DNA of 64,000 nt. It comes from Euglena gracilis (lineage: Eukaryota). Location: assembly GCA_039621445.1 (NCBI GenBank), contig CP154954.1:18834642-18898641 (forward strand), written 5' to 3'. Position 1 is the stretch's first letter. Each line of letters opens with the position of its first letter. Position numbers and translations under genes: made by a program. Positions 3,799 to 44,200 of the stretch are shown piece by piece. Under the pieces are notes generated by a model. That model was not told the origin of the DNA. It saw only the letters and a list, made by a program, of their open reading frames with translations, and did not search any database.

Positions 3799-4712
3799 TC
3801 TTATAAAAAAAAACAGCCTGGTGGAGGGTGGGCATAAAATTCTTGCTTCCTGTCCCATGACCCATGGCACCCCATCACAAAAGGCACTGGGCGATATGTT
3901 CATATTTGACACACTTCTCCGCTGGCGGATTGTGACGTCCACTGCATAGTGGGCACGCCTGTTTTTTTTGACGTTGTTTTTTTTTATTTCTAACAATGTT
4001 TTTTTTAAAAAAAATGCCCACGAGGTTTTGCAACGAAAAATTTTTGAATGCATATTTCCAATCATTTTTGGCAACTTCTAGGTCATTTCTGCCAAAAACT
4101 GCCTTCCACAAAAAATGAAAAAAGTCATAAAATGCATTTTTTTGCATTTTTTGGGTGTTTTTGACCATTTTTTGGCACTTTTGAACTTATTAGGATTCGA
4201 AGTATGGTTTGGGTGTTTCATAACAAGTTTTTTTTAAATAAAATTTCCCATTTTTTTTGAATTTTTTTAGTGTTTTTTTTTTCTTCAAAAGAAACACCTT
4301 TTTTTTAAGAATACAAAAAAAATGCCCACTATGGTCCACTGCCACATCCATCTCGTCGTCCAAGGTGTTCATCGCTGCACGCAAGCAATTTCCATCTCTT
4401 GGAAAAAGTGTCATGGCAGGCAGAAGACCGAGGAGCTCTGTGATGCACGTTTAGGAAAGTTTGTTGTGAAGAAAACCGGCGTGCACCTTTTCTGTACACG
4501 ATGCTCCGGTGGGTTGGCTGTTTTCATTCCACTTCGTCCCAAGAGGACTCGGTGGGGCATTCTATGTATAACCTGGTGGTACAAACATACAAATGTCGTG
4601 TCCAGAAGTCTCCTACAGAAGAATGTGAGTGTGATTGTTGCAGAGGTCAACTGTCGAAGGTGGTCTGTGATGATTGTGTGGGGCGTGTGGTGTGGTGTCG
4701 AGCGGTTCAGGA

Positions 4713-17983: not shown

Positions 17984-19903
17984 ACACAAAACCAGGTCTT
18001 ATATGGGGGGGCATGGTAGTTTTTCCCAAAGGGAAGGAAGTCATTGAAAATTCAGATTCTAAATTTTGTAACCCCTATGGTTCCAACGGAAGGAAAATGC
18101 AATGGAAACATTGCAGTTTTCTGACTGCTTTTTGGAAGTGGTTTTGGTCAGTGTGACCCTTAAGGAGGACTGGTGAGCATAAAACAAAATAAATAATTTT
18201 TGATGATTTTATTCAACCACCAGTGGCGGAGGTCTGCTAATTGTACTTTTAGGATATTCACACGGACCCGTGTGCTGTCGTGCTTGCTTTGCCAGGCAAA
18301 AGGTCGATGCCAATTCAAGCTCATCAACGTTGGACACGGCCACTTTTGAGCTCTTCGGACAGGAGGTGTGCTTGGTAACGCGAGACAGGCAATCTGCGCC
18401 GCCATACAGCCACTGTATTTGCTTGGCTCGGCAGGGATTCAGTGAGTGTTAGTTTTGCACAGGGGGGATGGTCCAGACCACCCCCTTCAGGGGGGGGTCT
18501 GGGACCCCCCCAAACCAAAAATTTTCCTATGCCCTTCTTTGGCTTTTTTCGTTCCGGGGAAGATAAAATTTTCGGCACGGCTGCTTTTTCAAAAAGGTGT
18601 GAAAAAAACGCAATTTTGGGGGGTTTTTAAGCCCCCAAAATTTTCTGGCGCTTCGAGACAGAAAATCTTTTTTACAGGAGGAGGGCGGTCCCGACGTCCC
18701 CCCTCCCTCTGATTCCCTGCCCTTGGAGGGCCGGCAGAGCAAAATAAAAGTATTTCCACCTTGTTTGGGTGGGATTTTGTCCTCCAAAGACGCTAGCTCC
18801 CATTTGAACTTTAATGAGCGTGTGGTGGGGTTTGCCGTGGTTGACATTCTGTTCAAGAGGCATCATCTGGGTTGCCGAACCGCCAACCCACCACATGAAA
18901 TGGACCAATTCTTCTCTGTCCTGCAGTTCAAAGTGGAGAACAAGCCCCTTGGCAGCCCGGACAATCAGGGCCATCTATGGGTCCCCCAGAATCCAGTTGG
19001 TTTTGCCGAGCGCATTCTTCAGAGCCATTCCTCAAAAAAATTCATGGAAATCTGCCCAAGGGGTAACTCTGCTCACGCTGTAGATTTTTCAGGACCTGCC
19101 CTTCTCTGTTGGCTGTGTTGGTCTTTCGTCGGATTTTTCCCCCCTTTGTTCTCTCTTCTGAATGGGTGTGGTGGAACTCTTTGGGGGAACTCTTTCCGAC
19201 CCAAGAGCGTGTGCTGTGGAATGTGTGTTGTCAGTCATTGTTGTGGCCTTGCCCCAGGCTGGCATGTGGGGGGCATGGTTGAGTTTTTTTTTTGAGGCAA
19301 ACCTGAAATTTTTTTTGTCCAGAAACCCACAAAATTTCAGATTTTGTGAGGACGATGGAAAATGGGGCTCCCGTGCACACAGTCATTTATTCAGTGGCCG
19401 ACCCCGGGGTCGGCCACTGACTGATTTTCCGGAAAAAAAAGTGAGTGGCTGGTTTTTGGAATAGTGGAAGTGACCCCCCGGGGGGGGGTCAGTAAAAATT
19501 GTGTGGTCCCGTGCCAACCTGCTGGGGGAGATTTTGTTATTTTTTCAAAAGAAACCTGGGCCCCCAACAATTTTGGTCATTTGCCTTTTTTGACCAAAAC
19601 AAAATTTTCCTTGTGATTTGTATTGGCAAATTGGACATTGGTGCCTTTTTTTTTTACACTCAGGTGACTCACAAGCCTCTCTGTTTACTTGCTTACATTG
19701 TTGTCGAGGAAAAACTATCGAAGATGGGAAAGTGAACATATTTGGTTTGTCATAGAAGTACTCCCTCCCTGGCTAACGAAGTTTGTCTCCGTACTAACCT
19801 ATTTTTCCTCGTCGCACTTTTGGGTCACAATCCTTTTCTTTGGCCCTCTTTGGCACACGGTGGCAACTCTGTTCCTGTCTTTTGTGTCACTGTGGTCCAA
19901 TAG

Positions 19904-22900
19904 TAAAGGAGGGGGTGAGGAATTCCAGCCATGCAACGAGGTCCCTGCTAATATCCCAGTGAGCTCCAACCGGAAGGGTATCCCGCTTTTCAAGAAGGTG
20001 CCCTCGCAGCCTTCGGAGCTGGACGTCAATGAGGTGTGCCTCCTGCCCAGCTCAGGGCTTCCACACGTCATGTTTATATATATATATATATACAATAAAT
20101 ATATATACTATATATACACATATATACAGGTTATTGTATACAGGTTATTATTGCATATGTATGTATATGTATGTATATATATATATATATATATACATTC
20201 AGATTTAAAATCAGAAAAAAAATGTGCAAAGCTTTCCCCAATGCGAAGCGCTGGGGAAGAAAAAAATTTGGCTCCAAGGGGGTCCCAGACTCCCCCCCTC
20301 CCCCTAAATAGAAATCAGAAATTGAAACTGAAACACGATTTTTTTGAGTTTTTTTTTGAGCCCAAATTTTTGAGCCAGGTTTTCCTGAACAGGGGAGGGC
20401 CACCTCATTTAGTACCCAGGGGAGGTACCCTGTCCCCATTGTTTTATATCTGTGCCTGTGTGCTCTTGACTGTTCAAGTGAGCTGCATTGACTCAATTTT
20501 CAACTTAGGAGCACCTGGAAGAAATTGCCGCAGATGTGCTGAAGTACCAGCGCTACAGCTTATGTGGGTTTCGCATTGGGAAAAGGCTTGCCACGGGATT
20601 GTTGTGGTCTGGTGTGGTACCCCTGTGCCTCATCTGCCATGTCTTTTTTTCCCCGCATGTTGGTTTGCATATGTCAGTTGTGTTCACAATGTGTTAGATT
20701 TATATTCAACTTCTGTGCACCTGCTAAACACGGCAGGAGGACATTCAAGTTGCAATTTACATTTCTCTTGTATCCTCCAGAAATCTGAAAATGCTTTTTT
20801 TGCATTATACAAATCTTGCATTATAAATATCAGATAATTGGAGGTTGCAGACATAATTTGGGTCCAAATATTTTTTTTAAAAGTTGAATCCTGGGGGGGT
20901 TTGGGTGGGTGGGTTTGCTGGACCCCCCCAGGGGCACCCCCAGGACCTTGTGGGTCCCCCGCCGGAGCAGGGTTTGGGTCATTTTTGGCCTTTTTTTGGC
21001 ATGAAGCGCCAAAAAAAACCTTGACCCCAAAATTGACCCCCAAAAGGTGGGTCCCCGTCCCCCACAGCCCCCCCCAGAGGGTGGTACCCCCCCCGGACCT
21101 ATAAATTCCCAGGTGGACAAATTTTGCATTATTCTTGTTGCTCCATCAACATAAGTGCATGCATGCAACTGGTCAAATCATTCGTGCCATTGTGCAAGTT
21201 TGCACCGCTCTTTCTTTTGGTTAATGGCATTTTTTTGTTGTTTTTTTGACTTTTTGGCTTTTTCGAGAAAAAAAATCGTGCGGGGTGCTGCTTTGACAAT
21301 GGTTTTAATATTTTTAACATAACAAATCCCACCCCACTCATCAACCCCAACTTACCAGGTTTTGAATAGTGCTGAGCTCTTGATGAGCGCGCACCCACCC
21401 CTTCATTGAGAAACGCGCACCCACCCCTTCATTGACCCCCCCATATACACCGGCCCACTCCATGGAGCTCTTTTTACTGAAATGCAAGGGTTTTGTGCCC
21501 GAAACCGGAGACCAGGGGGGAGAAAAACAGTCGTTTTTGGCTCAAATAACACGTTTTCCGGGTCCGGGAGGCCAAAAAACATCGTTTCGGGCAAAAAAAT
21601 TTTTCGATCAAAATACCGGTAGATGGGGCGTTCCAAGGGCTTCAAATTAGGTCTCCGGACATTTCCTTTGATTTGGCTTCATTTTGGAGATATTTTGAAA
21701 TTTGACATTTTTTGGCCGAAATGGCAGAGTCCAAAGGGGGGGGGGCTTATCCAGGGGGGGGGGCGGGCCCATCCTACTCAGTTTGGACCCCTTCGCGCGT
21801 GAATAACTCGGGCCTGGCGGGGAGTTGGGGGTCAACTCCGGGTGATTCGGAAACTAGGAATCCAGTCGCTCGCGACTGAAAAAAAAAATTCCGGGAACGG
21901 GGCCGGGATCATGGTGATAATCCGTCGGTTCTCTGGTGGCCCCGACCCGGGGGGGGGGAGGGGGGGGTCGAGGGGGGGTTTCGCCGGGTGTAAGCTTCGC
22001 TCTTACCCATAAAGGGATAAGAGCTCAGCGATAAACCCCCCACTCAACCCCCCCTCCCCGCGCCGACCAAACAAAGCCCGACTTTTAACCCCCACCCCTG
22101 GGAAAGAAGAATGAAAGACGCTGGGAACAATTTTTGCCGGCTGCGAAACCCAAAAAAACTGATTTTTGGCAATTTTTATGCAAATAACCATGATCAAAAA
22201 TGCCATTTTTGACAGATTTGCCAAACAAAGTCTTCAGGAGCTCCCCAGAATTGTTCACTTTTCTTAACTCTTTTGGGAAAACTTTTCACTATGAAACATA
22301 AACCCCCCCTCCCCACTTACAAACCCCCTGGGGCTCCTTGGATCAGGTTTTGTTGGCCAGCCGAAGGGGGCTAAATAAGTGGGGTAGTCATCAGTTATAA
22401 GTCAAGGAATTGTTGGTCAAAATCCTGCCCACCAAAATGACCTCCTAATCCCCCCGATTTGGCATTCTTTGGAATTACATGCATGCCAACTCACATGCAA
22501 CTTTTTTTTTGCATTTTTTTTGCATTCCTTGCATGCATGTTTTGAGGTGTCTTGTTGCATAATCCCACTCTCTGCTGATGAAGCTATGCCCCATGTGTTC
22601 AGAACAGGCTACAAGTACCCAGCAGGCTCTCTCATCTCACACATCCAGGGAGTTGAAATCCTTACGTTACCAGCCAGAATGTGTGCCCTTTCGAACGTCC
22701 TGATCCTTGGAACCAAGGAACCCACCTCTGGTGACCACTGGTGACCCAGCAAGATGGTTTTTATGTGGAAATAGGAATGCGTAACCCCCCCTCTAAATAC
22801 AACCCCCCCCAGGGTTTCTATTTGGGCGATAAGGCAAGGCCCCCAGGGAGGTTTTTACACAAACATTTGTGTTTTTCGTTGCATTACATTTATTTTTATA

Positions 22901-24413
22901 ATTCGGCGGCTACATTTGGACTGGGGTGAATCAAATATCCAACGAAAGGCGTATTTGTTTCCCGATGCAGTTTTGCACTGATTGCTTTAAATTCCACTGT
23001 TTAAATAAAATTTGCAGCTGGTTACCATTTTTGTTCGTATTCATTGCCTAAAAACTGCCACAAAATGGTAAATTTTCAGGGGTTTCCCCCTCCTGGTACC
23101 ACCCGCATGGCGTCTGTCCAGGTTCTCATTGGGGAATAGGGGTTGTATTTGGTCACCATCATGCCCCATGGGGGGTTTCAACGGGGGAGGGGTTACACTA
23201 AAGGTGTGTAAATTTGGGAGGTTTTCCTCAGTTTGAAAATGCAGACTTCTTCAGCAAGGTTGCCAGAAATCCAAATTTTCCCCTGACGTCAATATTTTTT
23301 CTGCTGAGAAACTTCGAATTTCCATTTTTAGTTGAATGCGCTTGGCGGCAGATTTTTTTTTTTATTCACTCAAGGGCTGCCCTGGTTTTCAAGCTCACCC
23401 ACCTCGAAAATTTCATCCCATTGCTTCAGCAATCCTCTGTTATTCCAGCCTTAAACGCCTTCTTCGTAGGTTTTTCGGATAGTTTGTTTGTTGACCCAAC
23501 TTCTAAGCCTCCGGTGAAACGCTGCCTTCCACCCACACCGCCTGTTGCGGGGACGCCCCCTCCACTCGCACGCCGTCCTCCGTGCCTTGACCCTCCGCCA
23601 GGGGTGGTACTGGGCCACGTTGGCCAAAACGTCGCCCTCCCCTCGTTCGCCGACAACCTCTGCCTCAACTGCATGACCTCCACTTACTTCGTCGCCCTGT
23701 TCACCGCATGTGCGTCGGTGCTCATCCTGTCGCCGCCGGGCTTTCGCTCCCGCAGTGCGCCGTGTCCACCATACATTGTGATATTTTTCTGTCAGAAAGC
23801 TGTAGAGTTGATTTTTCTCCCCCCGGTGCTTTTATGCCATGCAAAAGATGTGCTGGTGCCCATCAAACTATTGGCATATTTGATTTATCCATCATCAGAG
23901 CTGCAGAGCATGGAACAATGGAACATGTTGGCAACCCAAAAGCGAATTTTTCGATGTTAAACCCAGAGTCTGTTCAAGGAGTTCAAAGTATCCTGAGCAG
24001 ATATTTTTTTTAAGTTTCGTGACCCGGCGGGGGGGGGGGTGGGTCCCTGGCCGAGCCCCCCCTTTCCCAGGAATGGGTACCCCCAGAGGTTGGGTTCTGT
24101 TCTATTTTCCCCGCTTGCACCGACAGAATTTTTTGGACCCCAAAATTGACCCTCCAAATGTCCAAGCCCCCCTCCCCGGGGGAGCCCAGTGGGTGGGTGG
24201 GTGCGTCTGGAACCCCTCGGGCCTTAAAAAACCTCTGATCCTGAGGATTAATAACCCAAAGTCAAAAAATCGTCAGGAGCATAACTGTGAGATTGTGTTC
24301 AATGTAAATTTGCAAGATGAAGATGTTTGACCAATTTTCAAAAAAAATTATCAAGCAAGGCTCCTCTTTGTTTCCTTTTGTTCCAGTGTATGTGTGAATG
24401 TGTGTGTATGGAA

Positions 24414-24447
<34 letters not shown>

Positions 24448-27400
24448 ACGCGCGTGCGCGTGCGTGCGTGCATTTGTGTGTGATGGGACCATGTCTCCTG
24501 CCCATCTGCATGTCTTCCTCTGTCGTATGGGGAAACTCTTTGACTGGGAATAAGGCCCCTGCCATTCTTCCTCGTCTGCTTGATCTCCCGGACTAACACC
24601 CCGGTGCAGCACCACTCCCACTCCTCTCTTGCGCTCGTGACACTGCACATGCCCCCCACCCTTTTTGTGGATGGCTTTATTGGGTCCTGGCTGGTTGCCT
24701 GAGCCCATTTCATTTCAGAAATGTCTTTGACTCACTGTCTCCCTGGATTTTTTTTTTGCCGCCAATCCTCCTCCTGAAGCTGTTGCTAACAGCCCCCCCC
24801 CCCCCTGGGACTCCGACTCGACTCTCTCGAGCCCCCTCCGGGGGGGGGGGTACTGCAAACCCTGAAGCAGAAGCCTGGAACAGATAGCAGAACTTCTGAA
24901 ACTCATTCTCAAGACCACAAAGGTCGGTACCCCCAATGCCAGGGGCTCTCGGAAACCTCGGGTCTGAACATCACATTCGGTGCTGGAGGTGGAAAGCCTG
25001 GGAACAGACAAAAGCAGTTGTGGAAGCAAAGGCTTCCATTTTTGTTCCTTATTGCCGTTTGAAGACAAAAGCTGTCACTCAGGCTGCATTTATGTGATCT
25101 GATGCTGAAAGTCTGTTCACACACGAGGGGAACAATGGAAGGTGGTGGGGTGTTGGGAACATGTTGCCTTCGTGATATTTTTTCTGAGTTCTGTTCAACA
25201 AGCCTGAAAAAAACCAGCAAAAATCAGAGAACCCTCAACCAGAGAAACGTCAGCTATCTTGTTTGCAGGTGCATTGCATCAGTGGAATTCGTTTCTTCTT
25301 TTTGCCCAGATGACTTTCCACATAAAAGCTTCTTTAAAACCAAGGTGCAAGGCACCGGCCTCAATGGCCCCGGGGAAATACACAATCATTGGAAGATGCG
25401 ATGAGATGTAACTGTTGCACTGCCACAAAAGAGTTGAAACGCGATGCTTCCGTTTGCGGCGCTTCACCGACCGCCGCTCCCCTTCCCCTGATAGGGAATC
25501 ATAGCATGGTCGCCATTCCAGCACTCGCCCCAACCGAAGGGACACACACCGCAGTGCCAGTGCCACGGACGCGGTGGTGGGCTTCCTGTCGGCGTGCGTG
25601 CTGCTCATCCGGGCCTACACCGCCCCCAGCAGCAAGGTCAGCCCGGTGTTCCACCCAGGGGTTCTCTTCCCTTTATCGAATACCGAACGAAATTCGTCGA
25701 ATGGCTCTTTCGTGTTGACCGGGGTTGAGTTTCACCCAAATCACGTGGGCTGCTTCCTGGCAGGAGGGATGGTGGCCCCACTCCAAGTTGGGTGCGACCC
25801 CCGTGGTGCAGGTGGTTAATCTGAACACTGCGCCTCACCATGGCTGGATCATTGCCTGTCCAAACGTTGCTGGGGAACTCTATCTCACTCCTTTCATGTG
25901 AGCTTTGGTGCTGGAGTCCCCTGCGCCTTGCAAGTGGGTCATCGTTCCGTGACCTGCTGATTTTCGCTGGGCCAAAACGTGTAAATGGAGTAAGAAATTG
26001 TGCAGGCCAGGATTGCATTCAGGGTTTTTTTTAGTTGTGGACCCCCGGGGGGGGGGGAGGGGGGGTAGGGTGGGTGGGTCCGGCCGGACCCCCTCAGAGG
26101 GGTGTGCCTTTTTTGGCTGGTGGGATCCCGGCGCTGAAGGGGCCGGAGAAAAAAATTTTGACCGGCGCCGAGGCGCCAAATTTTTTTGGTATCTTCTTTG
26201 CCGCGCCTCTTGTCACAGCCAAAATGTACAAGTGCTTTTGTGGTTCCATGTTGAAGAATTCTGGACAGTTACAATTTTATTTTATTATCCATCATTATCC
26301 ATCATTGTGAATGTCATTAAATTTCTCCTTTAAGTTGTCATTTGATTTGGTTTTTTGTTTTTCTTCGAAGCACAACATTACAGCGGCATACACAATTAAA
26401 CACAAATGAGCATTGCTTTGGTCTTTGCGACAATTCCACAGTAAAACACCAGCATTTTCTATGACAACAATGATAACAAAACATTGTAACTGCCGTCAAT
26501 TTTTTTTTCGATGATTGGCGTGTTTGCTTTGCCGCGTTCACGTTTCGCAGTGTCAAAAATACCCCCCCCCCAAAAGTGGGTCCATCGGGACCCCCCCCCC
26601 CCTGGGGGGCCCCCAAGGGGTGGGTGGGTGGGTGGGGGGTACCCCCGGTCTTAAAAAGAACCCTGATTGCATTTTTTTGCTTTTTGTTCTGCCTATCAGC
26701 ATCCATACTCGCGGGAATGTGGATGCCAATGAATCACGGCAAAGCATCATTCCAGGGTTCCGGAAGTTCTCTGTTCTGAAGTGCAGAGGGACTAATGTGC
26801 AATTTTCATTTATACCCCACCCTGAAGGAGCGAATCTTTGTCCCTAGGCCATTGCCTCCAGTGTCTCCATCTGCTACAGCATCCGACTCCATACGCTCTT
26901 CAAGGAGGAGGTATCGTCTGCTTGCTGCCTTTTTTTTAAGTCCTTGTCACTGCTTTGGGTTTTCAAGCGAAGCCTGGACAAGAAAATGTCCACACAGAAG
27001 AAGCGCACGCATGGGAAACCACCTGGCTCTTTTAAACAAATTCTGTTTTCCCCAACCGCTCAACCATTTAGGAAACGTAGGTATCGAAATGAAGGCAATC
27101 CGCCCCTGCAAAGTTATTTGGGCAGTGCCCTAACCCATTGACAGATTGATGGATCGATTCACCACATATCCTCCTATAACCCTTTTCCTGTTCCTTGTGA
27201 AGCGGGCAAGTCATTTGGACGGAACTTTTTCAGCTTTCCCCCTGCAAAGTTATTTGGGCATGCAAAACTTCAGGGCACTGCACATTTTGTTCGGGGGTTA
27301 ACTTGAGCACCATCACCGAAATCTGTTTGGAAGTTTTTGAGAAAAATGAACCTTTTCTGAACCAGCAAATGTTTCAAATTACAATCGATTTGTTTCTCCA

Positions 27401-30400
27401 TTTCCGCCCAAAAGATAAAGCTTCCCATCATAAAGAGGCCCCTCCAGAGAGAGTTGGAAGGTAAAGAAAAATTGGCGGAAAGTTGGAAAGGATGAGAATG
27501 AGGCAGTGGGTCCTCTGCCATTTCTTTTACCAGTGGGACCCCTCATCGATGATGCCGAGTGCTTTGGACGACGTTGAGGCCAAAAAGGTTGGTCCACTAA
27601 TTTTGCGGGGGGAAACGTTGTTTGGGAGGGGGGGCTAGTGAACTACTTAGGTTTAAACTTTTTGTGGTGGGGTTGGACTCCTTGTTCCTCAATTGGAAAA
27701 CATTTGTCCCTTGAGTGTCCCTTTTTCATTATCATTTTCCATTTTGGGTTCCTAGACACTTGCCAAAATTTCCTGTATGTCATGCTTTTTTTTTTGAATA
27801 GCTTCCCACTTGATGTATTGGTGTTTATGTTCGGCCCACGGGTCTGTTACAAAAAATACGCAGTGTTGTATTCAGGCAGTTTTTTTGGGGGGGCACCCCA
27901 CCACCCCATCACATTAAAGGAGCAGGAACTCGCCTTGTTTCTCTGTTATCCGAGTCTCCGTCCCGGCGCCTTCCAACCTTTGCGTGCGCCTTTCCAGTAC
28001 CTGACGTCCAAAGATGCCATCACGTGCCTCCTCGTGGTGTTTGGGTTGCTGCTGGCGATGCCCAGGCAGTAGCTCCCCCGCCCAAGGATATTTGTTTTAA
28101 AGGTTTGGTGACCCGGTGGGGGGGAGGGAGAGGGGTCCAGAGGGGGGGGGTCGCGCTGGCTTTCCCTCCATTTTCGGTGCGAAGTTTTTGGCTCATGCAA
28201 GCCCTGATTAGGCTGTTGATTAACGGTTTGCAGCACCCCCTGGGGGGGGAGGGGGCTGGACTGCAGCTAGTCCAATTTTGGCTGGTGGAAATCCCAGAGG
28301 ACCCCCCCGGGGGGGGGGTCCAGTAGCAGAGCTGGCAAGTGGAATTTTTTTTTCCACAGAGACCGGCACGAAGCGCCGGAAATTTTTTTGACTCCAAAAC
28401 TTATCAAAATGTCCATTTTGGGCCATTTTTGGAAGAAAGTCAGAAAACATTAAAAGCCTCATTTCCACCTCCGGCGCACAGCACCAGGGGAATTTCTTTC
28501 TCCCAGCTGGGGGGACCCCTGACCCCCCCAGTGGGAGGGAGGTCTAGTTGGTGGCTTTTTTCCAGTGTCTATCAAAATGGCGTGCCAGTGGGCCCCCCTG
28601 GGTCTTTGAGCCAGGTTGGCCACGGCGTTCGGCAAAGACCATGCGTTGGGTTGGACCCGGTGTGGTGCTTCAGGGTGGCATTGACCCCGCTTCAGCCCCT
28701 TGCTCAACTTTGACCCTCCCAGAGCTTGATCACAATCACCTGAACACCCCCCCCCCCCGGTCGTGGACAAGGAGAGTCCACGGAGTCCAAAGAGTTACGA
28801 GACTTTTTTCAGTAAATTCTTCCTGACACCTGAGGGTGACCTGGAGGGGATGCACCCTGAGGTATAACCAGAGGTTGGCAGGAAGGTTTTTCAAAAAAGA
28901 GTCTTGTAACCCTGTCATCACCATACATCTCTCTAAGGTTTTGCGAACCCCCCCCCCCCCCGGGGGGGTGACTGCAGCCAGCCCCGATTTGGGCCCAGCC
29001 CAGCCGCAGCAGCCGCCTCCCCCGGGGGGGGGGGGTGCTGCTAGCCCTAGCTAGCCAGCCCCTTTTTGGGGGTCCAGCCCAAATTTTTTTGAAAAACTGT
29101 GTTCAAAAGTGGCCAAAAATGGGGTTTGGGGGGCGTTTGGGGCATTTTTGGGGGGGTTTCAGATGCATCATTTTTTCAAAACTGTGTTCTGCAGGTCATT
29201 TTTGGGCTTTTTTCCGATTTCAGTCCAGCTCGCCCCGGTTCGGGTCCACCCCCCCCCCCCGGGGGGGGGCGGGCTAGCCAGCCCAAATTTCTAGCCCTAG
29301 CCCCCCCCCCCCCCCCCGGGGTCCTTAAAGAGATGTATGGTCATCACCCACCTCACCAATAGGCACGCAGTCCCACCCAGATGTTGCAGCCCCGAGGTTT
29401 CCGAATTATGATCCAAACGGTATTTACAATTTCCAAATGAATCATGCAGGAATGAGGTGAATTCATGTATTCGTTCCCATATGATGATCCGACGGGATTC
29501 AAACACAATGTGTTTTCCTGTTCCTGCCTCAACGCCCCTGGGGTCTGCTAGAGTCCAATCACCCCAGGGATGGATGGGAAGCCCTTCGGTTATGAGGTAG
29601 GTGGTAGGGGGTGGTCCTGACCCCCCCCCCCCCGCTGGGGGGTAAGGTGGTAGGGGGGGGTCCGGACCCCCCCCCCCCTCGCTGTCAAGAGGGGGGGGGG
29701 TCGGACCCACCCCCCCCCGAGCTTCCCATCCATCCCTGAATCACCCACAAGGAACCACACTCTCAGGGAATTTCTCTTCGCGCCAAATAGAGAGATTGAA
29801 AAAATGCTCTTTTTTGTTTTCTTTATTATTTGTCTCAAAAACTTTCGGTTGAGGGATGCCTGTGCCTGGCAATGATCCCGACGTGGAACGATCCACTGTG
29901 CGGCATTGACCGCGGGGTGGTATGGCCGCTCATCTGCCTCTTTGGCTGGTTGCCCAAGACCCTGCTGAACGTCTTGGAGGAGGTGTGTCCAGCCCTGCCT
30001 CTTCAGTCATTGCTCTTTCTTGGGTTTCCATATTGCCTTGTTTTAAAAAAGGACATTTGGCAGTTTTGCCAAATGTACTTTTTTGCCAAAATTTTTTTTT
30101 TGCGGCTCAGCTTTCCTTTGACCCCCTCCCCCAGTGACCCCCCCCCCCACGTGACCTGCAATTTCGAGTTTTGGCGGGTGGAGGAAGTAAAATTCCCAAG
30201 AGGACAAAAAATCCCCTTTCTTGAAAAAGGCCATCCCCCCCGTGACCTGTTGCACCCTCTAAAATGGCCATAACTCGTACCAGGCATGGGGGGGGCCAGG
30301 TCTCCCCCGTCTGGGGGTGGGGCAAGCTTGCCAGCCCAAATTCCCAGCCCCAGCCCAGCAGCCCCCCCCCCCCACTGGGGTCCTTGAAGAGATGCATGCC

Positions 30401-33400: not shown

Positions 33401-35834
33401 TGAAGGGGTGGGTGAGCGCTTATTAAGAGCTCAGCACTATTCAAAACCTGGTCCAGACCCCCCCCCCCAGATGTCGGGAGGAGGTGTCCGTACCCCCCCC
33501 ACTCTCTTTGACAGGTTCCGAAAATAGCGAAAAGCTTTCTTCTGGCGCTCTGCACCAAAAATGCTTAAAAGGGGAGGGCCCGTATTAAGTTTGGTTTATG
33601 TGCAATTCTTTGGCTCTGGTTTGTGCCACAGGGCTGGGGTCCAACTTTGCGGAGTTCCTCTCGATGATCCGGGAGTCCCTCTACTGCTACGCCTTCTCCC
33701 GGCCGCAGTGCCCCCGCCTGTGCCCCCCGTTGTACTTGGTGGGTGCGAGGTCAATGGAAAATGGAAGGAGCCTCTCCGCACTCTGTCTTTGTGCATTTTG
33801 TTCTGTCTTGCATTTCAACGAACGTTGCATACAGGGCACTGTTCAGGAGAATTTGACCCCATCTGCCGGGGGTCCAGCCAGCCAGCAGCGTTTTTCCAGC
33901 CCCGGACCCCCTCTCCATCGAAGAGTTTTGTTTTCTTTTGCAACGGGCGGCTGGACAGTGACGCATTTTTTGGGGGGTGCAAGAATGGACAAAAAAAAAT
34001 GGGCTAAGTGGGTCGGTCGGTTTGGGCTCGCCAGGGCAAATTTGGTTGGGGTAAAAAAAATCCACTTTTGCACAATTGGCAGTATTTTGGGTATTTTTGC
34101 AGTTCCGATTTTTTGAATCTGGGTTGACCGAAGGTCAGGCCTGGTTCCAGGTGGGGGTGGGGGTGGGGTGGACAGCGTGGTGGTCATCCATCAGCCTTTT
34201 TCCAGCCAGCCCAAACTTTCCAGCCTCCCTTCAGAACTATGCCACTCGGAACACCAGAAGGGTGTTTGTCCTGCATTCGATCGTGTGTGACTGGGCCACA
34301 GATGCACCTGACTGTGTGTGACTTCCTTGGGGGGTTTTTGAGAATGGGTGGGTGGGTTGGGGTCGCTGGACCTGTCCCTCCCAGGGGCCAGGGGTGGGGT
34401 ATGCCATAGGTCAGCCTTTGGCCCGGCCGAAGGTTGGGTCAGAAAAATAATTTCAAGGGTTTTCGGGTGGGTGGTTTTTCTCTCTCTCTCTCTCTCTCTC
34501 GAAAATCAGAGGGTGGGTGGGTTTGCACCCAGGAAAAAGTGCCCCCGGGGGGCTCACTAAGTGAATCTATGAACCGGGCCATCCATGCAACGGGCCATGC
34601 ATGCCTGGACTGGGTCACACATCTAAACCGGGTCACGCGTGACCGCAGTGCCCAACCGTTGTCCCCCCCGGAACGGGGGCACGCCCCCACCTCGCGTTCT
34701 GGGCGACCTTCCACGTCCTCACCGTGCTGTGGACGTCTGTCTGCTGCGCCCTGGTGCAGGAGCAGGTGTTTGCCAAGCTGTCCATGGCGGCGGCCCTCGT
34801 GTACGTGCCCCTCAGCGTGCTGGCCTGGATGGGCTACTACCTCCGCCTCTCCAGCTGGCAGGCCTGCCCCACCCTGTCCCCCCATCGTGCACGCTCTCAT
34901 TTCGGTGTGAGCATCAGCAGACCAGGGGGTGAATTGGCAATGACCCAAGGTGGAATGGAAAGAAATTGGCAGAACAAAATCCCCCAAGTATTTTTCTACC
35001 GTTTTTGGCCAAGTTTGCCAAATTTCCCATATGATTTTCGAATTTTTTTTCTAGAAATTACCCATATTTTCTATTGCAAAAAAATTAGCGAAACAAAACT
35101 TTTGCCGAGACTGCCAAATTTTCCATCTGCAGATTTTTTTCATCCAGTTTTCTTTAGCCCCATTTCCCCCGCCCTGTGTTGTCAATGCCTGATGGGCAGT
35201 TGTGCCATTTGGGGTGGTTGCATGAAAGGTGGGAGCCACGTGATGGGTTGCTTTCAGTGAGGGGCTCGTCATCAGGGGGCCAGCCAGTGTATATTTTTTT
35301 GCGAAGTGTGAATGGCGACGGCACTTGTAACAGAGATGGGAGGATGCGAACTCCCCGCGAGCCCTTCCAAAGAATGATTGGGTGAAATTCCGACCCAACG
35401 TGCAGTGTTTCATTTCCCGCCCACCCAGAAGATCAGTGGGCATCCCCTCATGGTTTAAAGCACAAATGTGGTATGTGCGTTGAACAAGGATGCTGGGACA
35501 TTTTTTTTTGCTTCCCCCCCCATTTAAGTGCACAGGGTGTGCTCAGTTTTGGACCGTTGTTTCGGGCCCTCAAGGGTGCGCGCTTTCTTTGTGGCACTAT
35601 GGTGTGCCACAAAGTTGTGCACTTTTTTGGATTTCACTTCGGTGGGGTGACTGCGCTCAATTTTGGGGTTAGACCTCATATAGCACAACCAGAACAATCG
35701 CGATGTGGTCATTTTTGCGTCGATGCGCCATATGCTTTTGCTTCTTCTGCTCAGGCAGTGGTGCCCACGTTGATGGTGTACATGTGCGCCCTCGTCCCCA
35801 TCTTGACCGCCGTGGCAATGCATGGCCTGCTCAG
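19904..35834 (+). CDS. CRT-like (chloroquine-resistance-transporter homologue, DMT superfamily) membrane transporter, multi-exon, ends unresolved
   Basis: Approximate exons: 19904-20033(?), ~22570-22730(?), 23602-~23735 (GVVLGHVGQNVALPSF), 25561-25645 (VVGFLSACVLLIRAYTAPSSKVS), ~25850-25897 (VQTLLGNSISLLS), ~26848-26910, 27998-28059, 29874-29982 (WPLICLFGWLPKTLLNVLEE), 30856-31005 (SLLFWVNLYALFFLVAFFWTDMLP), 33632-~33719, ~34706-34861, 35755-35834. Motif order matches CRT homologues as recalled; no search was run. Confidence 0.68.
21354..22035 (-). mobile_element. GAGCTC-ended dispersed repeat, inverted relative to 31620-33452
   Basis: Ends gctgagctctt / aagagctcagc. The core (gattatcacc..cagtcgcgagcgactggat..) recurs at ~11440-11980, ~15680-16160 and ~31740-32040. 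Confidence 0.8.
23998..24237. mobile_element. hAT-type MITE, CAG...CTG, 8-bp TSD ATCCTGAG
   Basis: TSD at 23990-23997 and 24238-24245. Confidence 0.85.
26020..26665. mobile_element. hAT-type MITE, CAG...CTG, 8-bp TSD ATTGCATT
   Basis: TSD at 26012-26019 and 26666-26673; termini cagggtt / aaccctg. Confidence 0.85.
28060..29873 (+). other. Euglenid non-conventional intron (gcc-CAGgca ... tgcCTG-gcaat|G)
   Basis: Removal restores GLLLAM-IPTWND in frame. CAG at +4..+6 pairs with CTG at -8..-6; no GT-AG ends. Confidence 0.8.
28922..29339. mobile_element. hAT-type MITE, CAT...ATG, 8-bp TSD GTCATCAC
   Basis: TIR catacatctctctaagg / ccttaaagagatgtatg; TSD at 28914-28921 and 29340-29347. Confidence 0.88.
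30476..30560. repeat. 10-bp minisatellite (GTGACTGGGC)n
   Basis: About 8 copies; a further patch at ~30745-30785. Confidence 0.85.
32258..32720. repeat. Self-complementary satellite (CATCATGACCCATGATG-GC/GGC)n
   Basis: About 21-nt units built from CATCATG/CATGATG in both orientations. Confidence 0.92.
32717..33240. repeat. Tandem repeat, ~160-bp unit, about 3 copies
   Basis: ggtcaaaaaagtcgaaaaaaatcga recurs at ~32717, 32882, 33042 and 33203. Confidence 0.85.
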
Positions 35835-36917
35835 GTGGGTTTTCGGCTTTCTGGACCAAATGGCTCTCATGTCCGCAAATCCTTTCTTCTATTCTTCTGT
35901 TCTGCTATTTTTTTTAACCAATTTTTATCTTGTGTGTGCATGATATTTCAATGGTTTTCTCGTGCAAATAGTTTAAGCTCTTTTCAGCTTCTAAGAAGTG
36001 TCAAAAACTTAAAGTTACGCGACAACTAACCATTTTCTGTCTGCGAATATGGATAATTCTGCAGCCGGCAGGCACACAATGAGAGACAAATGATGGGCCC
36101 AAATCCTCAACAGGTAATTTTTTCCCAAACGTCATACTAGAGCCCTCCCCCCCCCCCCCCCGCCTCGCTTACCGCCCCCCCCCTGTCCCCCCCGGGCCCC
36201 TGCCAGCTTTTCCGTCGGGCCAACCCCCATTGGCCTCCCGGACCGGGCTATGACCGATGACCGCTACCTACCTCCCCACCTGACCCTCTCACCTCTGGCC
36301 TCCTCACCTCCTCACCTTTCACCCCGCATGATTGTAGGCCCTTGCCTTCTTTGCCTCGCAGGCGTTTTCCACCCTGCTCATTCATAGTGCACATTCGGCG
36401 GTGTGATCGGTGCACCCCTTGACATTTTCCAGAAGGGCTCATTGTCGAAGGTGCGAAGCAGGTAATCGTACGTAGAAGCTGTGAGAAGCCTGAGAGGCCT
36501 GGAACTTCAGGATGCTTTTGTCAGCATTTTGCTTCGTTTGACCCGTATGGGTGTGGGGTGACAGTGAGGGGGATGTGCGGGGCATGTTTGGTGTGACAGT
36601 GGTGGGGGGAGTGTGGGGGGGGGGTTTGGAAATTCCTGGAAAACCGACGTGTGAGAAGCGTCATTCACACCAATATTAACCATCAGCATCATGCACGACA
36701 TCAGCAAAACTGGACTTGAGAACGGTCCAAAAAAAAACCTGGCATACAAAGGACATTTGTGCCTGACCTTGCACAGGGAAGGATGATGCTGTTTTTGTTC
36801 TGGGGGGTTGGCTGGGGCCAGGCGAAGCCGAAGGCCGAGTAAGTCAAAAATGGCGTCAAAAATTTGCCCACCAAAGTGATTTGTGTGCCCAAAAATTGGC
36901 ATTCATTGAGGTCGAAG

Positions 36918-37156
36918 CAGGCTTTTTTTTTAAACTCAGAAGACCCCCCCCCGGGGGAGGGGGGTGGGTGGGTGGGTCCAGGGCTGGACCCCCCAAGGGG
37001 GGGGATCCTGGGCCGTAGGCCTGGGTCTGGGTTTCGGCGCGAAGTGGCGCAATTTTTTTTTTTGGGAAATGGCCTCAGAGCACCCGATCTTTGGGGGGTC
37101 CCGCACCGGGCTGGGTGGGTGGGGGGGACCCCCGGGGTCTTAAAAAGAAAAGCCTG
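36918..37156. mobile_element. hAT-type MITE, CAG...CTG, 8-bp TSD GGTCGAAG
   Basis: TSD at 36910-36917 and 37157-37164; termini caggctttt / aaaagcctg. Confidence 0.88.
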
Positions 37157-39762
37157 GGTCGAAGTGGGGGTGTGTTGGGGGGTGTTGGAGGGGATGTGGA
37201 GGTGTGTGGGGTCTGTGGGGTACTGTGGGGGCTCCACTTTAAGCCACGCAGCCTGCATTTCTATTTCACATTTTTTTCAGATTTCATATTTTGATGTGCT
37301 TTTTGTATTGCCCTCCTCTGGTTAATGAAAAGCCAACACCGACGCCATCCCACGACACTCTGGACCCGCCCAAATTTGGGACCCAACCTTTGGGCTGCAG
37401 ATTTGGCTCCATACTGTCATTATGCCTAAAGCACCCCCCACCCCGGTCCACAACAAACGGCATGCCCCACATATACACATACGAGTTGGGGTGTGCCGGC
37501 ATGAGTCCTCGGCAAACATAAATATAATATGCATACACAGGCTCACCCTCGCTGCTCCGGTATTTTCCTGCACTTAAAAGGTGACTGCAGATGCAGTAAA
37601 TCCGCATATTGTCGGCTGAGGTTGGAGGCCCCTCTGGGGGTCAATTTCTGAACGCCCAGGCAGATGCTGAACAACCACACACGCGCGCGCGCGCACGCAC
37701 CACTTACACACAGCATGCGAGCACACACACATCATTCCAGTTTACCTTCACCTGCTTTTGATTCCAGAAAAAAATATAAAAAGACAACTCCCTGCCTCCA
37801 CCTGCCCTCTGGAGTCATTTCGGTCGTCTCCTGGTGCACAGGAGAACAGATGGTTCGAGGTTCGAATGTTCCCATGTCATCATTTTAGTTCACGGAAGCA
37901 AGGTCGGCAGAATCCAGGCTCCAACCAAGCTGCCATGCCAAACTGCACCACCTTTTAGGAGCTCCCCAATCAGCCAGCGAACGCACCCTACAGTCGCCTC
38001 CTGTCAACCGGCGATGCATCCGCTGTGTACGTTCGATGTGTGTCACCGTTACACATTGAACGCTCAGCAGCCCCTGTGGCATTGCTCAACACCCCTGCTT
38101 TCCCTCTGAACGCACTTCCCATTCCCACTTCCGACTGACGATCGTCAGCACAGCGTTGCGAGCCCAATGTCCATAATATTTTTTTGCTTGATTTGATTTT
38201 TGATGATAATGTGATGGACACAATTTTCCTGTGGCATCAGTAGATATGACTTTAAGCTTGAAGATTGGAATGGCGCTTACCGAGCCCTGACTTTTACATG
38301 GCACAAGTGCCTGCACCACAGGTGAAAGGAAAGTGGTGTCACCCCCTGAGCATCACCCTTCACACATTTGCGGATTACCATATTCGCATGGCGCCTATGT
38401 TGGACAAAGTGGAATTCTCAATCTGCAGCATACACTTGGTGCAACTGCAGGGTACCCAGACATGGTGCAGTTTTGTGTGTGGGACCACCCCTCATGAATA
38501 CCACCAAAGGGTCACGGGTTCCTGAGAAAGATTTCAAAGCCCCGATAGGACGGCAGATGCCTGATACCCTCTCTCACAGCCACATTCTTAACTTCTGTTG
38601 CATCGTTCTGCAAACTCATCATATGCTGTAGCAACAAGGAGGTGCGTTGGGATTATCATAAAATTAACTGTTAAATTATTTGACACCCGACCCCTCCCCC
38701 TTCCATGTAAAACTTGGCGCTGCCAAAGTTGGATTGTTGGCGTAAACTTGCAAATCTTGGCCCTCGTTTTGGCTTTTTGTCCTATGTTGCGCGTGGCCCA
38801 ACAACATAACATGCAAATTTGGCTCCCAAGGTTGGCTTCCCAGCCTCCTTTGTGCCCGGACAGCCCGGGGAGGGAAGGGCCTACTTCCTCTTCAGTACAG
38901 TTAATAAGCCAAACAACTATTTTTTCCACCAAAACCTTGCATACTTCCATCATCTTGCGGTTTGCGGAGAACTGGAAAATGAAATGGTGGATGATATATG
39001 TTGCTCAAGTTGTTGAACCCAAAACGAGATCCCTGTGTATTTTTTGATTGCTTGTAGTCACACCAAAGCGGGGCAATTATTCTTGGAGTGGGCTTTTTCG
39101 TTTCCTTCTTTAGCCCCGCGAAGTTGGCTTCCCTGTGTGATGTTTGTCGCTCCACTATTCTCTTGATTGTGAATGATGATGATGATTGTGAACACTCAGA
39201 GGTTGACTGTCCTGATTTCCACCTGTTAAAGGGCTCCTCGACCCAGCCATCCTCTGCATTGGAAGGGAACACGTGTACTGGCAGTTATGAAGTTCCATTC
39301 TGTCCTTTCCAGGATGTCTCGCTGACCGGGACTTCTATTTCATTCTCAGAAGCTTGCAGTGCCTGTCTGGCGTTTCCATCAATTGGGATGAAACCAAGTG
39401 AGATATTTGCTTCAACCCCCCCCAATAACTTGGCGGGTCGCAAGGTTACTGGAACCATTTTTCTTTTGAATCACCCAGGACAGGTAGCAACATGAAATAC
39501 TAAAACAAATGTGCTCACCGTCGTGAACGAAGTGTCCATTGTGTGATCAATATGGATCATCTCGGAGGGTTCACTCCCTGCGGAGGGTATCAGACAAGCC
39601 CCCTTTCAGACCGTGGGCGACCCTGGGACCAAGAAGAATTTTCCCTGGCGCTTCGTGCCGGGGTGGCCTGGACCCCCCTGGGGTCCCCCTCCCCCTGTGC
39701 AAAGAATTTTTTCTGGTACGAAGCGTCGTCAAAATTCTTGGGTTTTGATAATGGCCCGCGAT

Positions 39763-39800
39763 TTCACCTTCCTCCTTTCTTTCGCTCATTCACTCCCCAG
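39763..39800 (+). promoter_or_regulatory. Candidate spliced-leader trans-splice acceptor upstream of NSUN2
   Basis: Long polypyrimidine tract ending in CAG, 135 nt before the ATG; alternative AG at 39887. Confidence 0.4.
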
Positions 39801-39935
39801 CGGGTGTGTCTCGGCAAAACGGAAGCGGCCGTGGAAAAGGTCCCGTCCAACGTGCATTTGGGGCGGGACCCCCTCACACTTTCACAGGGGTGCCCCGCGG
39901 GTGTGGTTGGGGCGCCGCCGCCGGGCCCCCCTGGG

Positions 39936-41223: not shown

Positions 41224-44200
41224 TATCTGTGTGTGTATGCGTGCGTGAGTGTGTATGTGTGTATATCAGGGGGAAAATTGACATGTGCAATTTTCCCGCA
41301 ATTTCTGTAATTTTCCGTGATTTCCCACGATTTTTTCCCTTTCTGCAATTTTTCCACCTATTAATCTGAAATGGAAGGTGAAATAGGTCCCGCCGGCCAT
41401 GCCAGACCTCCATTTAGAATGTATCACAATTTTTTTTTTACGTATCACATGTATCACAGCCCAAAAATTAATGTATCACATGTGTATCACCAAAATTTTT
41501 TAATGTATCACACATGTATCACCAAAAAATTTAATGTATCACATTTGTACCACCAATTTTATTTGGAAATTTTTTATATTTTTACATCAATATGTTTTCC
41601 CCCCTTTCTATTCCGCTTTTCATCCTTGTTTCCTTGCCTCTCTGCAGTGGTGCAAATGGAACATTTTTCTTCTGATAATGCTTTGGGGGACAGCTACGCG
41701 GAGCTGCACAATGTGGAGGACGAGGGCATCCCCGATTCGCCTCCTGGAGAGGGTTCTTCATCAGAATCTGCAAAAAATTGAAAGTGACTCTGCACACTTG
41801 AAAAGGAAATTGCCACCACTTCCGTATGGAATGGAAAAATGGCCGCGATTGGTTGCGTTTTTAAGCATCCCGTGGCATGTGGTGTGCTATTTGCCATCAA
41901 TTTTGTCAGAATCCAAAAGTTTGTAAAACTGTAAATTTTTTATCTTACAAATCTGTGCTTCACAACTTTTATTATATGTTTCACCAAGGAAAATTTGTGT
42001 ATCACGTGTGTATCACCAGCCTTTTTTTTTTAATGTATCTCATATGTATCACCAAAATTTTTTTTAATGTATCATATATGTATCACCCAAAAAAGAATTA
42101 ATGTATCACAGATGCGTTGTGATACGCAATAAATGGCGGTCTGGGCCATGCCTGGAATGCTTCACAAGGGAACACAAAGTAGTTTATTGCTAATTTCTTG
42201 CAAAACTTGCAAGTTATTTTTATGCTAATTTTGGCTTTTTTGTTGTTGTTTTGAATCTGCTGGGAAATGATTTCGAATAAAAAGAATTCCTCATCTTGGA
42301 GCAGATTTTTCCTCGAGTCCAAATTTTTCGTCAGCTTTTGCTATTTTCCGTTTTTATTTATTTATTTATAAACCAACACATTCCATATTTTTTTTGGAAT
42401 CGGAACGTTTTTTGACGTTTTTGTTGGAAACGGAATGAACGACTGCTCAAAACATACACCAATGTTGCAAAATGGAAACTTTGAAAAGTTTTCAAGTCCT
42501 CTCCAGCGGAAACGTGAGTGAACATTCTCAATATCAATTTTTCTGCACTTTCCCGCAATTTTCTGCGAATGTTCCCAAAAGGCCTCCAATTTCAATTTCC
42601 CCCTGATGTTTGTATGCATACATGTATATGCACACGTGTGTGTGTGTGTGTGTGTATCCCGGTGTGTGTTTGCACATGTGCGTATGTGGTGTGCGTGTGT
42701 TCGTTTGAGATGAGGGCCAATGCATACACATATCCCTCCCCCCCCCCCCGGCACCCACAGGGGAACACCTGGAAGGAGCCCTCTTACTGCAATGCCCTCC
42801 TGGAGCAGTTCTACGCTACAAACGTTGCGGTGGTGCCGGCGGACGAGTACGGGGAGTTCCTGGCTGCCTGTCGGTGTGGCTCCCCACTTCTACCCCGGCC
42901 TGCAACCATTGGTGCATTAAATTCTGGTGAGACCACACCAGCAGGGGTGATGGGGTTTCGGGAAACTGGGACCCCCCTGGGGGTTACACACACGGATGCT
43001 TGATGGCCAGGCTGGAATTCTCTTTTTCAGGGTTTTCAGCCAACCTTGGTGTGTGTGTGTGTGTGTGTGGGTGGGTGGGTGGGTGGGTGGGTGAGTGGGT
43101 GGGTTGATCGGCCATCCCTCAGAGGGGGTGTTTTCGGAAAAATAGTGGGTGGGTTTTAACCTGTGGAAGAGCATTTCAAGGGGGGCCCAATGCCCTTTTT
43201 TGAGGATGTGTGTGCAGGACCTCTGCTTTCGCCTTTTTTTATTTTTCAGACGGCCGCTTCCAGCAGCGTTCCGCATCAGTGAACAACGCTCAGATGTAAA
43301 GGACTACCTCATACGGCAAATCCAGACTGTGTGGATCGACAGGTGCAAGGCTATTTCACATTTTGGGTTCATTGTTGTGGGCACAACTGATGCATTTGAT
43401 TTTCAGGGTTGTCTTGTGCTTTTGACTTGCAATTCAGTTTGATTTGATTGAATTTGGATGACAGGTGATTCAGCTTGACATTGGAGGGAAGGTTGTCCTA
43501 AATGGAGATTTCTGAGCATCAAGAAGTGTGAGCAAGGATGCAAATTGTGAGGATGCATGCGTTCCCAGTAATTCACACATCACAGTATTTGCGTGTGCGT
43601 GATTCGGCTTCTGTTTAACTCAGACCCCCCGGTGGAAGGGGTGGGTGGGTCTGGGGTCGGACCCCGCGTGGGGGGGGGGGGTGCAGGCTGGAGGCCCGGG
43701 TTTGGTTTCGGTGCAAAACGCCGAGTTTTTTTTGGGAAATGTCCTTAGACTGCCCGATCTTTGGTGGTGTCATTCATGCAGGGACACCCCCCGTCTTCCT
43801 GGCTGGGTGGGTGGGGGGACGTCCCTCCCCCAGGGGTCTTTAACAGAATAATGAATAACAGAATAATAATCATCCAGGCAAGAATGAGTCCATGATCATG
43901 TGCAGCCTGCCAATGGGCACTTGGCAAATGATTGAGGAACACGACGAAGGTCATTATCAAAGGTGAATATTGAGACCTCATCGCATGAACGATAAGCTGG
44001 TGCTTCGCTATCCGTTGAGAGGAATCAACCTTGATGTGTCTCAGGTTGACAGAATTGGCGGCATTGCAGACCACTGATGGTGCAGATGAGGTGTCTTTAT
44101 GTGTGGTTGTTTTTTTCAAGCCCAAGGAGACCTCTCACCCAGATTTTTAAGCCACCGGTGGTCCCTCCAATAGTGAGCGATAGGATCCTGTGTTCGAAAC

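Follow-up and report, generated by a model that had tools for sequence, protein, structure and literature searches.

Junction repeats, spacers and CAG...CTG elements at a non-conventional intron of Euglena gracilis: a possible imprint of 8-bp target duplication on a splicing code

How euglenid non-conventional introns arose, and by what mechanism they are spliced, has been a question since the 1990s, and a 64-kb window of Euglena gracilis DNA (contig CP154954.1; "the window" denotes the whole stretch analysed) raises it in a concrete form: it holds an intron, 28060-29873, that begins three nucleotides before a CAG and ends five nucleotides after a CTG, together with small elements that themselves run from CAG to CTG between 8-bp target-site duplications (TSDs). 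Is the spacer sum, 3 + 5, the imprint of such a duplication? Non-conventional introns make up 71.8% of all introns in E. agilis, and their splicing code, 5'-N3CDG-/-CH'GN5-6 with the cut before R, comes from a 2025 genetic dissection by Nomura et al. (PMC12501133, here and below in its accessible text): the code allows no 5' spacer other than 3, works best with a 3' spacer of 5 and also accepts 6, has a purine as first base of the downstream exon and depends on base pairing beyond CAG; synthetic introns of 50 bp are spliced. That text calls the origin of the introns unclear, "MITE-like" at most (MITE, miniature inverted-repeat transposable element); a MITE-like origin had been proposed in 2014 from the inverted ends by Milanowski et al. 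(PMC3935182), and a 2024 review names the CAG/CTG a "TIR" (terminal inverted repeat) and the junction repeats "TSD-like" (PMC11282704), both again as far as the accessible parts go. A MITE origin is thus already in print in general form (2014, 2024, 2025), as an earlier note on this DNA had said. Our own reading, which we hold to be probable, takes the intron at 28060-29873 as an ordinary member of the non-conventional class that carries nested MITEs and originated in a target-duplicating insertion, and CAG...CTG MITEs as credible generators of that class.

RNA joints were collected over 25900-45899 from contigs of X15 and X18, runs presumed to be RNA, and from raw reads of X21 and X24 (RNA-seq, same species label), with 15 of 158 joints listed. 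The X15 and X18 contigs contain a chain of joints, seven of them with GT-AG ends on the + strand, and are therefore spliced transcripts. Contigs of both runs, and one raw X21 read, join 28057 to 29872 and skip 1814 bases. Three letters (ATG) at this joint fit either side, so that the borders slide over 28058-28061 and 29871-29874; none of the four allowed offsets gives GT/GC-AG ends, and +2 alone among them gives the published pattern, which places the intron at 28060-29873 as GCC-CAG...CTG-GCAAT, then G. At this offset the CAG lies 3 nt from the 5' border and the CTG 5 nt from the 3' border, the middle bases of the two triplets are complementary, and the downstream exon starts with a purine, the G at 29874. 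The reading frame is open across all joints of the joined exons, and the transcript protein EG_transcript_7539 (P0013) is identical across the focal joint (...LLLAM/IPTWND).

The ends of the intron are also predicted to pair, with six contiguous pairs (CAGGCA/TGCCTG) in the register that starts at +4 and ends at -6, a stem shorter than the 12-bp stems of the published synthetic introns (PMC12501133); the predicted end duplex has -31.3 kcal/mol versus -21.5 ± 3.1 in shuffles (z = -3.1), a moderate pairing. Introns of this class are expected to leave as circular RNA, later than the conventional ones; among the 15 listed joints, none was a back-joint at the intron ends. Taken together, RNA joints, P0013 and slide analysis confirm a genuine euglenid non-conventional intron with the N3-CAG...CTG-N5 geometry that the earlier note had read from the letters, and the caggca/tgcctg TIR that it had described is present as a pairing. 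In the pre-mRNA, CAGGCA would pair with UGCCUG and neighbouring bases would add to the stem. The non-conventional machinery cuts three bases ahead of CAG and five bases behind CUG, before the purine, and links ...LLLAM to IPTWND....

Which event placed the intron in this exon is suggested by a direct repeat at its junctions. The repeat, CTGGC[G/A]ATG, agrees at 8 of 9 positions, a level reached by 0/760 control offsets, and the best 8-base windows of the junction alignment agree at 7/8 (p = 0.0066); both copies encode Leu-Ala-Met (L-A-M). It starts 3 nt upstream of the register proposed before, in which the duplicated 8-mers directly adjoin CAG and CTG, and it includes the 3' CTG. Target duplication at insertion is the simplest account of this repeat in either register, and on balance we lean, by a little, towards an insertion that duplicated its target. 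Such an insertion would have left the 9-nt imperfect repeat across the junctions, and the fresh MITEs now inside the intron would have entered later, leaving 8-bp target duplications of their own. Three nested MITEs, one of them decayed and two fresh, make up more than half of the 1814 nt as such later cargo, which is why the intron is long. The decayed copy (28209-28610) starts with TAG and has an eroded 3' end and no intact duplication, and the nested MITE at 29565-29738 belongs to the same family as the one at 45345-45777.

The scan for the elements themselves asked for inverted ends of at least 10 bases, one mismatch being allowed, with identical 8-mers immediately outside them, and it returned 82 raw pairs versus 0-2 in each of ten Markov shuffles. 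G/C runs, a 19-bp satellite and further tandem or palindromic sequence account for most raw pairs. Removal of low-complexity and tandem regions left nine distinct elements with perfect 8-bp flanks, six of them CAG...CTG, two CAT...ATG and one GCA...TGC, all small (174-1089 bp) and non-coding, with TIRs of 11-20 bp. The earlier count of at least five CAG...CTG MITEs and one CAT...ATG MITE with perfect 8-bp TSDs is therefore sound, and the scan adds one of each type. Outside tandem regions the modal perfect flank length is 8, the rows at 6, 10 and 12 bases consisting almost entirely of these elements read in other registers, and the MITE ends fold far better than shuffles (z -7.4 to -10.9). Seven of the nine lie within introns of the two genes of the window, four of these seven in non-conventional introns, and two lie outside mapped genes. 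The 8-bp duplication and the short TIRs (six starting CAG, two CAT, one GCA) are of hAT type, and the elements are putatively labelled hAT from two traits of their sequence, the duplication and the CAG ends.

All six CAG...CTG MITEs have the duplication directly beside CAG and CTG. The published code is found on at least one strand in five of them, and in full on the sense strand of the host gene, here the + strand, in three (26020, 36918 and 60031), in each of which CAG follows a 3-base spacer, the stem has 14-18 pairs, and CTG is followed by a 5-base spacer and then a purine. The first of these lies within non-conventional intron r (25653-26845; intron letters as in Table 1), the second within non-conventional intron e and the third within the GT-AG intron 59605-60862. 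A stem started by CAG/CTG and an 8-bp duplication equal to the 3 + 5 spacers would thus be what the code requires; because MITE ends and duplication match the code, an exonic insertion would be erased from the mRNA precisely, with exactly one copy of the duplication. The arithmetic had been set out before (3 nt + element + 5 nt removes one TSD length); it is right, and the published code strengthens it. We tentatively suggest, at slightly less than even chances, that the 3+5 spacer rule mirrors the 8-bp TSD at the RNA level, so that TIR elements that duplicate 8 bp and carry a terminal stem would be a self-erasing, ongoing source of introns. The extension of this proposal, that the ends would be CAG...CTG most often but also CGG/CCG or CGTG/CACG, with intron b as a fossil, is put forward just as tentatively. 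If true, the MITEs at 26020, 36918 and 60031 would already be cut from pre-mRNAs as nested introns, removing 654, 247 and 428 nt, respectively. A literature search, with supplementary tables outside its reach, found no statement that the spacer sum equals the 8-bp duplication (3+5=8), nor did it find a description of CAG...CTG MITEs in Euglena.

The geometry was followed through a census of 41 junctions from RNA joints and exact protein threading, of which 23 are GT-AG, 2 GC-AG, 13 without GT/GC-AG ends and 3 unresolved. Where borders slide, the register was taken as the one with the longest stem (G-U allowed) that starts at +4 and ends at -6; by this rule 10 of the 13 show 3-11 contiguous pairs with N3/N5 spacers, and a purine comes next in 10/10. 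The 3/5 geometry is thus general in the window, CAG/CTG being merely its commonest triplet. Two introns named in the earlier note behave as it had described: 62536-63201 is N3-CAG...CTG-N5 at the protein level by P0002 (EG_transcript_4336), and the intron at 48427-49208 has 3+4 spacing. Intron c (34859-35751, slide 5) was dropped as an N3/N5 intron, as only a GC-AG reading fits it, and introns d (35830-36192) and h (~47424-47559) are odd, stand outside the N3/N5 set and possibly reflect allele or assembly differences. Untranslated regions (UTRs) contain non-conventional introns too: e belongs to the 3' UTR of gene 1, and f to the 5' UTR of gene 2, where it precedes the ATG by 13 nt.

Flank identity was scored between the 8-mer that precedes the stem and the one that follows it, with 770 shifted positions near each intron's own 3' end as null. 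Over the ten N3/N5 introns the matches (Table 1) total 33/80, versus a null mean of 21.0 (P = 0.003; P = 0.03 once the two cut-flanking positions are left out), and when flank lengths of 4-12 were compared in the first six introns, identity was highest at 8 (0.44), with lengths 5, 9 and 11 reaching 0.38-0.40. The largest contribution is that of intron b, for which an RNA joint skips 973 bases with 6 letters shared and protein threading confirms the removal. Its inverted ends, [T/C]GTGCCCCC(C)GTT, form 9 contiguous pairs in the +4/-6 register; the flanking 8-mers CCCCCGCC / CCCCCACC agree at 7/8 (p = 0.0013 versus a C-rich local null) and the junction alignment at 9/10 (p = 0.004). By its sequence, intron b would be the best transposon-like fossil in the window, much as the model of the earlier note predicts, except that it ends in TGT/ACG and not in CAG/CTG. 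Introns b and s have in common ends of CGTG...CACG type ([T/C]GTG...CACG), not CAG...CTG, with the same 3/5 spacers. The base two positions before the cut is identical at the 5' and 3' junctions in 8 of the 10 introns and varies between them (A, C, G); it may be a remnant of duplication, or both cut sites may be read alike.

Several results weigh against deriving the introns from MITEs. In the register directly beside CAG and CTG, the focal flanks GCGATGCC / GCAATGAT agree at only 5/8 (empirical p = 0.026), and at 3/6 (p = 0.19) without the two Y/R junction positions (pyrimidine before the cut, purine after it), and the overlap of the 8/9 repeat with the CTG is unexpected if a CAG...CTG MITE was inserted. 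The "fossil TSD" that the earlier note saw at this intron is thus present as a 5/8 match, weak in that register, with a better repeat 3 nt upstream. The aggregate signal rests largely on intron b, since P rises to 0.04 without it and to 0.23 without both it and the junction positions. For twenty conventional introns the mean in this register is 3.8/8, owing to the AG/G that recurs at both their ends, and some of them carry junction repeats at p ~0.013-0.05, so that junction repeats as such are not specific. The spacer sum of intron k is 7 (3+4), and the register rule was devised after the first introns had been seen, so that the registers of b, f, m, q and s call for caution. None of the nine MITEs has borders that coincide with intron borders, and MITEs of middle age (CAG...CTG TIR pairs with 6-7/8 flank matches) were not found outside tandem regions in the window. 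With 70-170 bases from either end as queries, 11 non-conventional introns matched no MITE in the window (0/11), yielding only chance matches of 12-20 bases and G-rich stretches, and the focal 5' and 3' ends gave nothing beyond G-rich 40-mers there; this family test is weak, as it draws on 64 kb out of a very large genome, and the whole analysis has the scope of this one window. The claim that hAT MITEs generate such introns therefore stands in part: three of six MITEs carry the code in full and a young intron has 8-nt junction repeats, yet no intron of the window is a MITE and 0/11 intron ends match one. That young intron, the strain-specific, recently gained gapC intron 4 of E. agilis ACOI 323, has 8-nt direct repeats at its junctions, longer than at the other introns studied, which its authors read as break repair (PMC4770533, Milanowski et al. 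2016, accessible text).

How the focal borders came about can be told in three other ways. It is possible, if unlikely, that a CAG...CTG hAT-type MITE was inserted in the exon and duplicated GCGATGxx, the copies then drifting to the present 8-mers and the TIR decaying to 6 bp, so that the focal intron would descend from a CAG...CTG MITE. The N3-CAG...CTG-N5 geometry, the 5/8 flanks, the position of the duplication in all six CAG...CTG MITEs and the first five bases of the intron, CAGGC, which are common to the MITE families of 60031 and 36918, all fit this account; it has to face the drop to 3/6 without the junction positions, three matches on the CTG that need a 1-in-64 coincidence, a TIR of only 6 contiguous pairs versus 14-20 bp in the MITEs, and the lack of a family match in the window. 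A shifted register, which we regard as improbable, would make the element 28060-29865, with a TIR GC[C/A]CAGGCA (8/9) and a duplication CTGGC[G/A]AT (7/8), the 5' N3-CAG lying inside the element and the functional 3' CTG-N5 being duplicated target, exactly 8 nt. This would explain the 7/8 windows (p = 0.0066) and the 8/9 window; the TIR GC[C/A]CAGGCA can be read from the sequence, and TGCCTG occurs twice at the 3' end, which makes both pairings possible. The register was, however, found by searching afterwards, no element with such ends occurs elsewhere in the window, and introns e and g do not show the upstream-exon end CTGNNNNN (or the corresponding 3' triplet) that it predicts.

An account without any transposon is, in our view, about as probable as the first of these, and likewise rather unlikely: the 3/5 offsets would belong to an endonuclease measuring from the stem, for instance with a 2-nt stagger, and the sum of 8 would be a coincidence; the junction repeat, with no greater likelihood, would come from double-strand-break repair, or from chance plus the Y/R preference. 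Break repair is what the authors of the young gapC intron proposed (PMC4770533, accessible text), and Y/R stands at 10/10 5' and 9/10 3' junctions of the ten introns, so that part of the flank identity is signal, not history. Seven of the ten introns have only 2-3 matches of 8, intron k has a spacer sum of 7, and no intron end matches a MITE. The 13-bp TIR and 7/8 flanks of intron b and the 8/9 focal repeat speak against this account, in which a single coincidence must moreover explain CAG/CTG as end triplets, the stem requirement and the length of 8 together.

The target-duplicating reading of the focal intron, and with it the self-erasing model, matters beyond this locus. The window adds to an old question TIR elements with 8-bp duplications whose ends match an experimentally defined code, and it yields a simple quantitative prediction, namely that the spacer sum equals the duplication length. 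If true, the Euglena splicing system would be tuned to neutralise one class of transposons, a non-spliceosomal parallel to introners; if the prediction fails, the 3/5 rule would be purely a property of the enzyme.

Table 1 Features of the window (positions are those of the window; flank, matches of 8 in the flank score).
Feature	Position	Strand	Description and evidence
Focal non-conventional intron (a)	28060..29873	+	1814 nt; RNA joint, code fit, P0013; flank 5/8
Upstream exon of gene 1 (...YLTSKDAITCLLVVFGLLLAM)	27998..28059	+	RNA joint, P0013
Downstream exon (IPTWNDPLCGIDRG...LNVLEE)	29874..29982	+	RNA joint, P0013
Terminal stem, 5' arm CAGGCA	28063..28068	+	pairs with TGCCTG 29863-29868
Junction repeat, 5' copy CTGGCGATG	28052..28060	+	junction alignment, 8/9
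Junction repeat, 3' copy CTGGCAATG	29866..29874	+	holds functional CTG and N5
Decayed copy of the 60031-60450 family	28209..28610	+	blastn 28210-28571 vs 60032-60385, 71%
Nested MITE, CAT...ATG	28922..29339	.	418 bp; 17-bp TIR CATACATCTCTCTAAGG (one mismatch), 8-bp duplication GTCATCAC
Nested MITE, CAG...CTG	29565..29738	.	174 bp; TIR CAGGGATGGATGGGAAGCCC, 8-bp duplication AATCACCC
MITE, GCA...TGC	2477..3565	.	perfect 8-bp flanks
MITE, CAT...ATG	3945..4333	.	389 bp; duplication GTCCACTG; outside mapped genes
MITE, CAG...CTG	26020..26665	.	646 bp; duplication ATTGCATT
MITE, CAG...CTG	36918..37156	.	239 bp; duplication GGTCGAAG
MITE, CAG...CTG	41403..42143	.	741 bp; duplication GGCCATGC; within GT-AG intron 40041-42760
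MITE, CAGGGATGGATGGGAAGCC, CAG...CTG	45345..45777	.	433 bp; duplication GGGATTCC; between exons 44880-44933 and 46052-46156
MITE, CAG...CTG	60031..60450	.	420 bp; perfect 17-bp TIR CAGGCTTCTGCTTAAGG, duplication AGCCCAAC
Intron p	18963..19952	+	N3-CAGGG...CCCTG-N5, then A; CAG/CTG; flank 3/8
Intron q	23735..24563	+	N3-GGGCTTT...AAGGCCC-N5, then A; GGG/CCC; flank 3/8
Intron s	24633..25572	+	N3-CGTG...CACG-N5, then G; CGT/ACG; flank 4/8
Intron r	25653..26845	+	N3-CAGGGGTTC...GAATCTTTG-N5, then A; CAG/TTG; flank 2/8
Intron b	33716..34688	+	N3(GCC)-TGTGCCCCC...GGGGGCACG-N5(CCCCC), then A; TGT/ACG; TIR ~13 bp; flank 7/8
Intron e	36405..37503	+	N3-CGG...CCG-N5, then A; 11-pair stem; gene 1 3' UTR; flank 2/8
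Intron f	39365..39922	+	N3-TGGCG...CGCCG-N5, then G; TGG/CCG; gene 2 5' UTR; flank 2/8
Intron k	48427..49208	+	N3(GCC)-CAG...CTG-N4, or 2+5; spacer sum 7
Intron m	61451..62444	+	N3-GCGGCTG...CAGCCGC-N5, then A; GCG/CGC; flank 2/8
Intron g	62536..63201	+	N3(ACG)-CAG...CTG-N5(TCCCC), then G; P0002 junction ...YCGG/AMLM; flank 3/8

The window is nuclear DNA of a euglenid and encodes two E. gracilis transcript proteins (EukProt names), with 100% identity over the queried exons. Gene 1 matches P0013 and runs on the + strand from 13799 to ~36385 (480 aa); the protein has many hydrophobic segments, as of a polytopic membrane-protein gene, and no Pfam family match. Gene 2 (39936 to 63525, 737 aa) matches P0002 and is an NSUN-type methyltransferase gene, with RsmB/F methyltransferase and NSUN2 pre-PUA domains. 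At 44934-46051, 47380-47425 and 48320-48331 there are small indels relative to EG_transcript_4336, or a 5-residue micro-exon (SAGVA) is missing from the window, mismatches that could be due to an allele, a paralogue or an assembly error; the corresponding junctions (residues 119 to 142, 142 to 187 and 208 to 229) were kept outside the counts. A tRNA gene lies upstream of gene 1 at 7991-8061 on the - strand (Rfam, 42.6 bits). The 19-bp satellite at 32269-32705, with units such as CATGACCCATGATGGCCAT, is located within the GT-AG intron 31016-33631 and has a very high contig depth in the RNA runs; it contains an Rfam match to MIR474 (32437-32544), probably a spurious one. Poly-C/G tracts at 29300-29317 and 36143-36164 are joined by hundreds of raw RNA reads (29317 to 36143; skip 6825, back 6865) with poly-C loose ends; they resemble artefacts of the homopolymers, or reads that stem from further MITE copies, and not splicing. 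Poly-C artefacts of this kind make up most joints of the raw reads.

Further observations concern the repeats. A large nested palindromic repeat of TAGTCGGCCGACTA units at 490-1930 is the source of many spurious TIR/flank pairs, and another inverted-repeat element, 62839-63062, with arms ...CTAATAGAAGC / GCTTCTATTAG... and G/C-run borders, is nested in intron 62536-63201. Matches in metagenomes to the 19-nt TIR of the 29565/45345 family (8 loci, one match each, no paired inverted copy) were taken as chance and left unused. The first eight letters of one MITE family appear to be those that also open the maize Ac terminal repeat, a likeness that a literature search left unconfirmed, and the weak target preference that we presume for hAT elements was not evident in 8 duplications. 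Among the 10 of 41 open reading frames (ORFs) of at least 170 aa that were searched, none had a Pfam match to a transposase, the only match being a weak one to RsmB/F, which led to the NSUN-type gene. Merlin MITEs were also considered, as E. gracilis Merlin families have 8-bp duplications and GG termini (PMC8101967, accessible text); the elements of the window end in CAG, CAT or GCA, not in the terminal 5'-GG described there, and this assignment was rejected.

Among known systems, the euglenid non-conventional introns are the closest to the focal intron, which like them is without GT-AG ends, has CAG at +4..+6, CTG at -8..-6 and paired ends, shows a purine at the next exon and borders made slidable by a repeat, and is removed from the mRNA. 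Nothing essential differs; the focal intron is long, owing to its nested MITEs, and its 8/9 junction repeat is longer than chance. Like hAT MITEs, the elements of the window are short and non-coding, with 8-bp duplications and TIRs of 11-20 bp that start with CAG or CAT, and they differ in that neither a transposase nor an autonomous partner was seen for them, in the ORFs searched. Introners, reportedly DNA transposons that are spliced out together with one copy of the target duplication (Huff et al. 2016), offer the nearest parallel in logic, since here too the removal of the element with one duplication would restore the mRNA. Introners are spliceosomal and come in many near-identical copies, whereas in the window none of nine MITEs is an intron, none of 11 introns had a matched end and no intron is recognisable as part of a repeat family; the removal here belongs to the non-spliceosomal machinery of euglenids.

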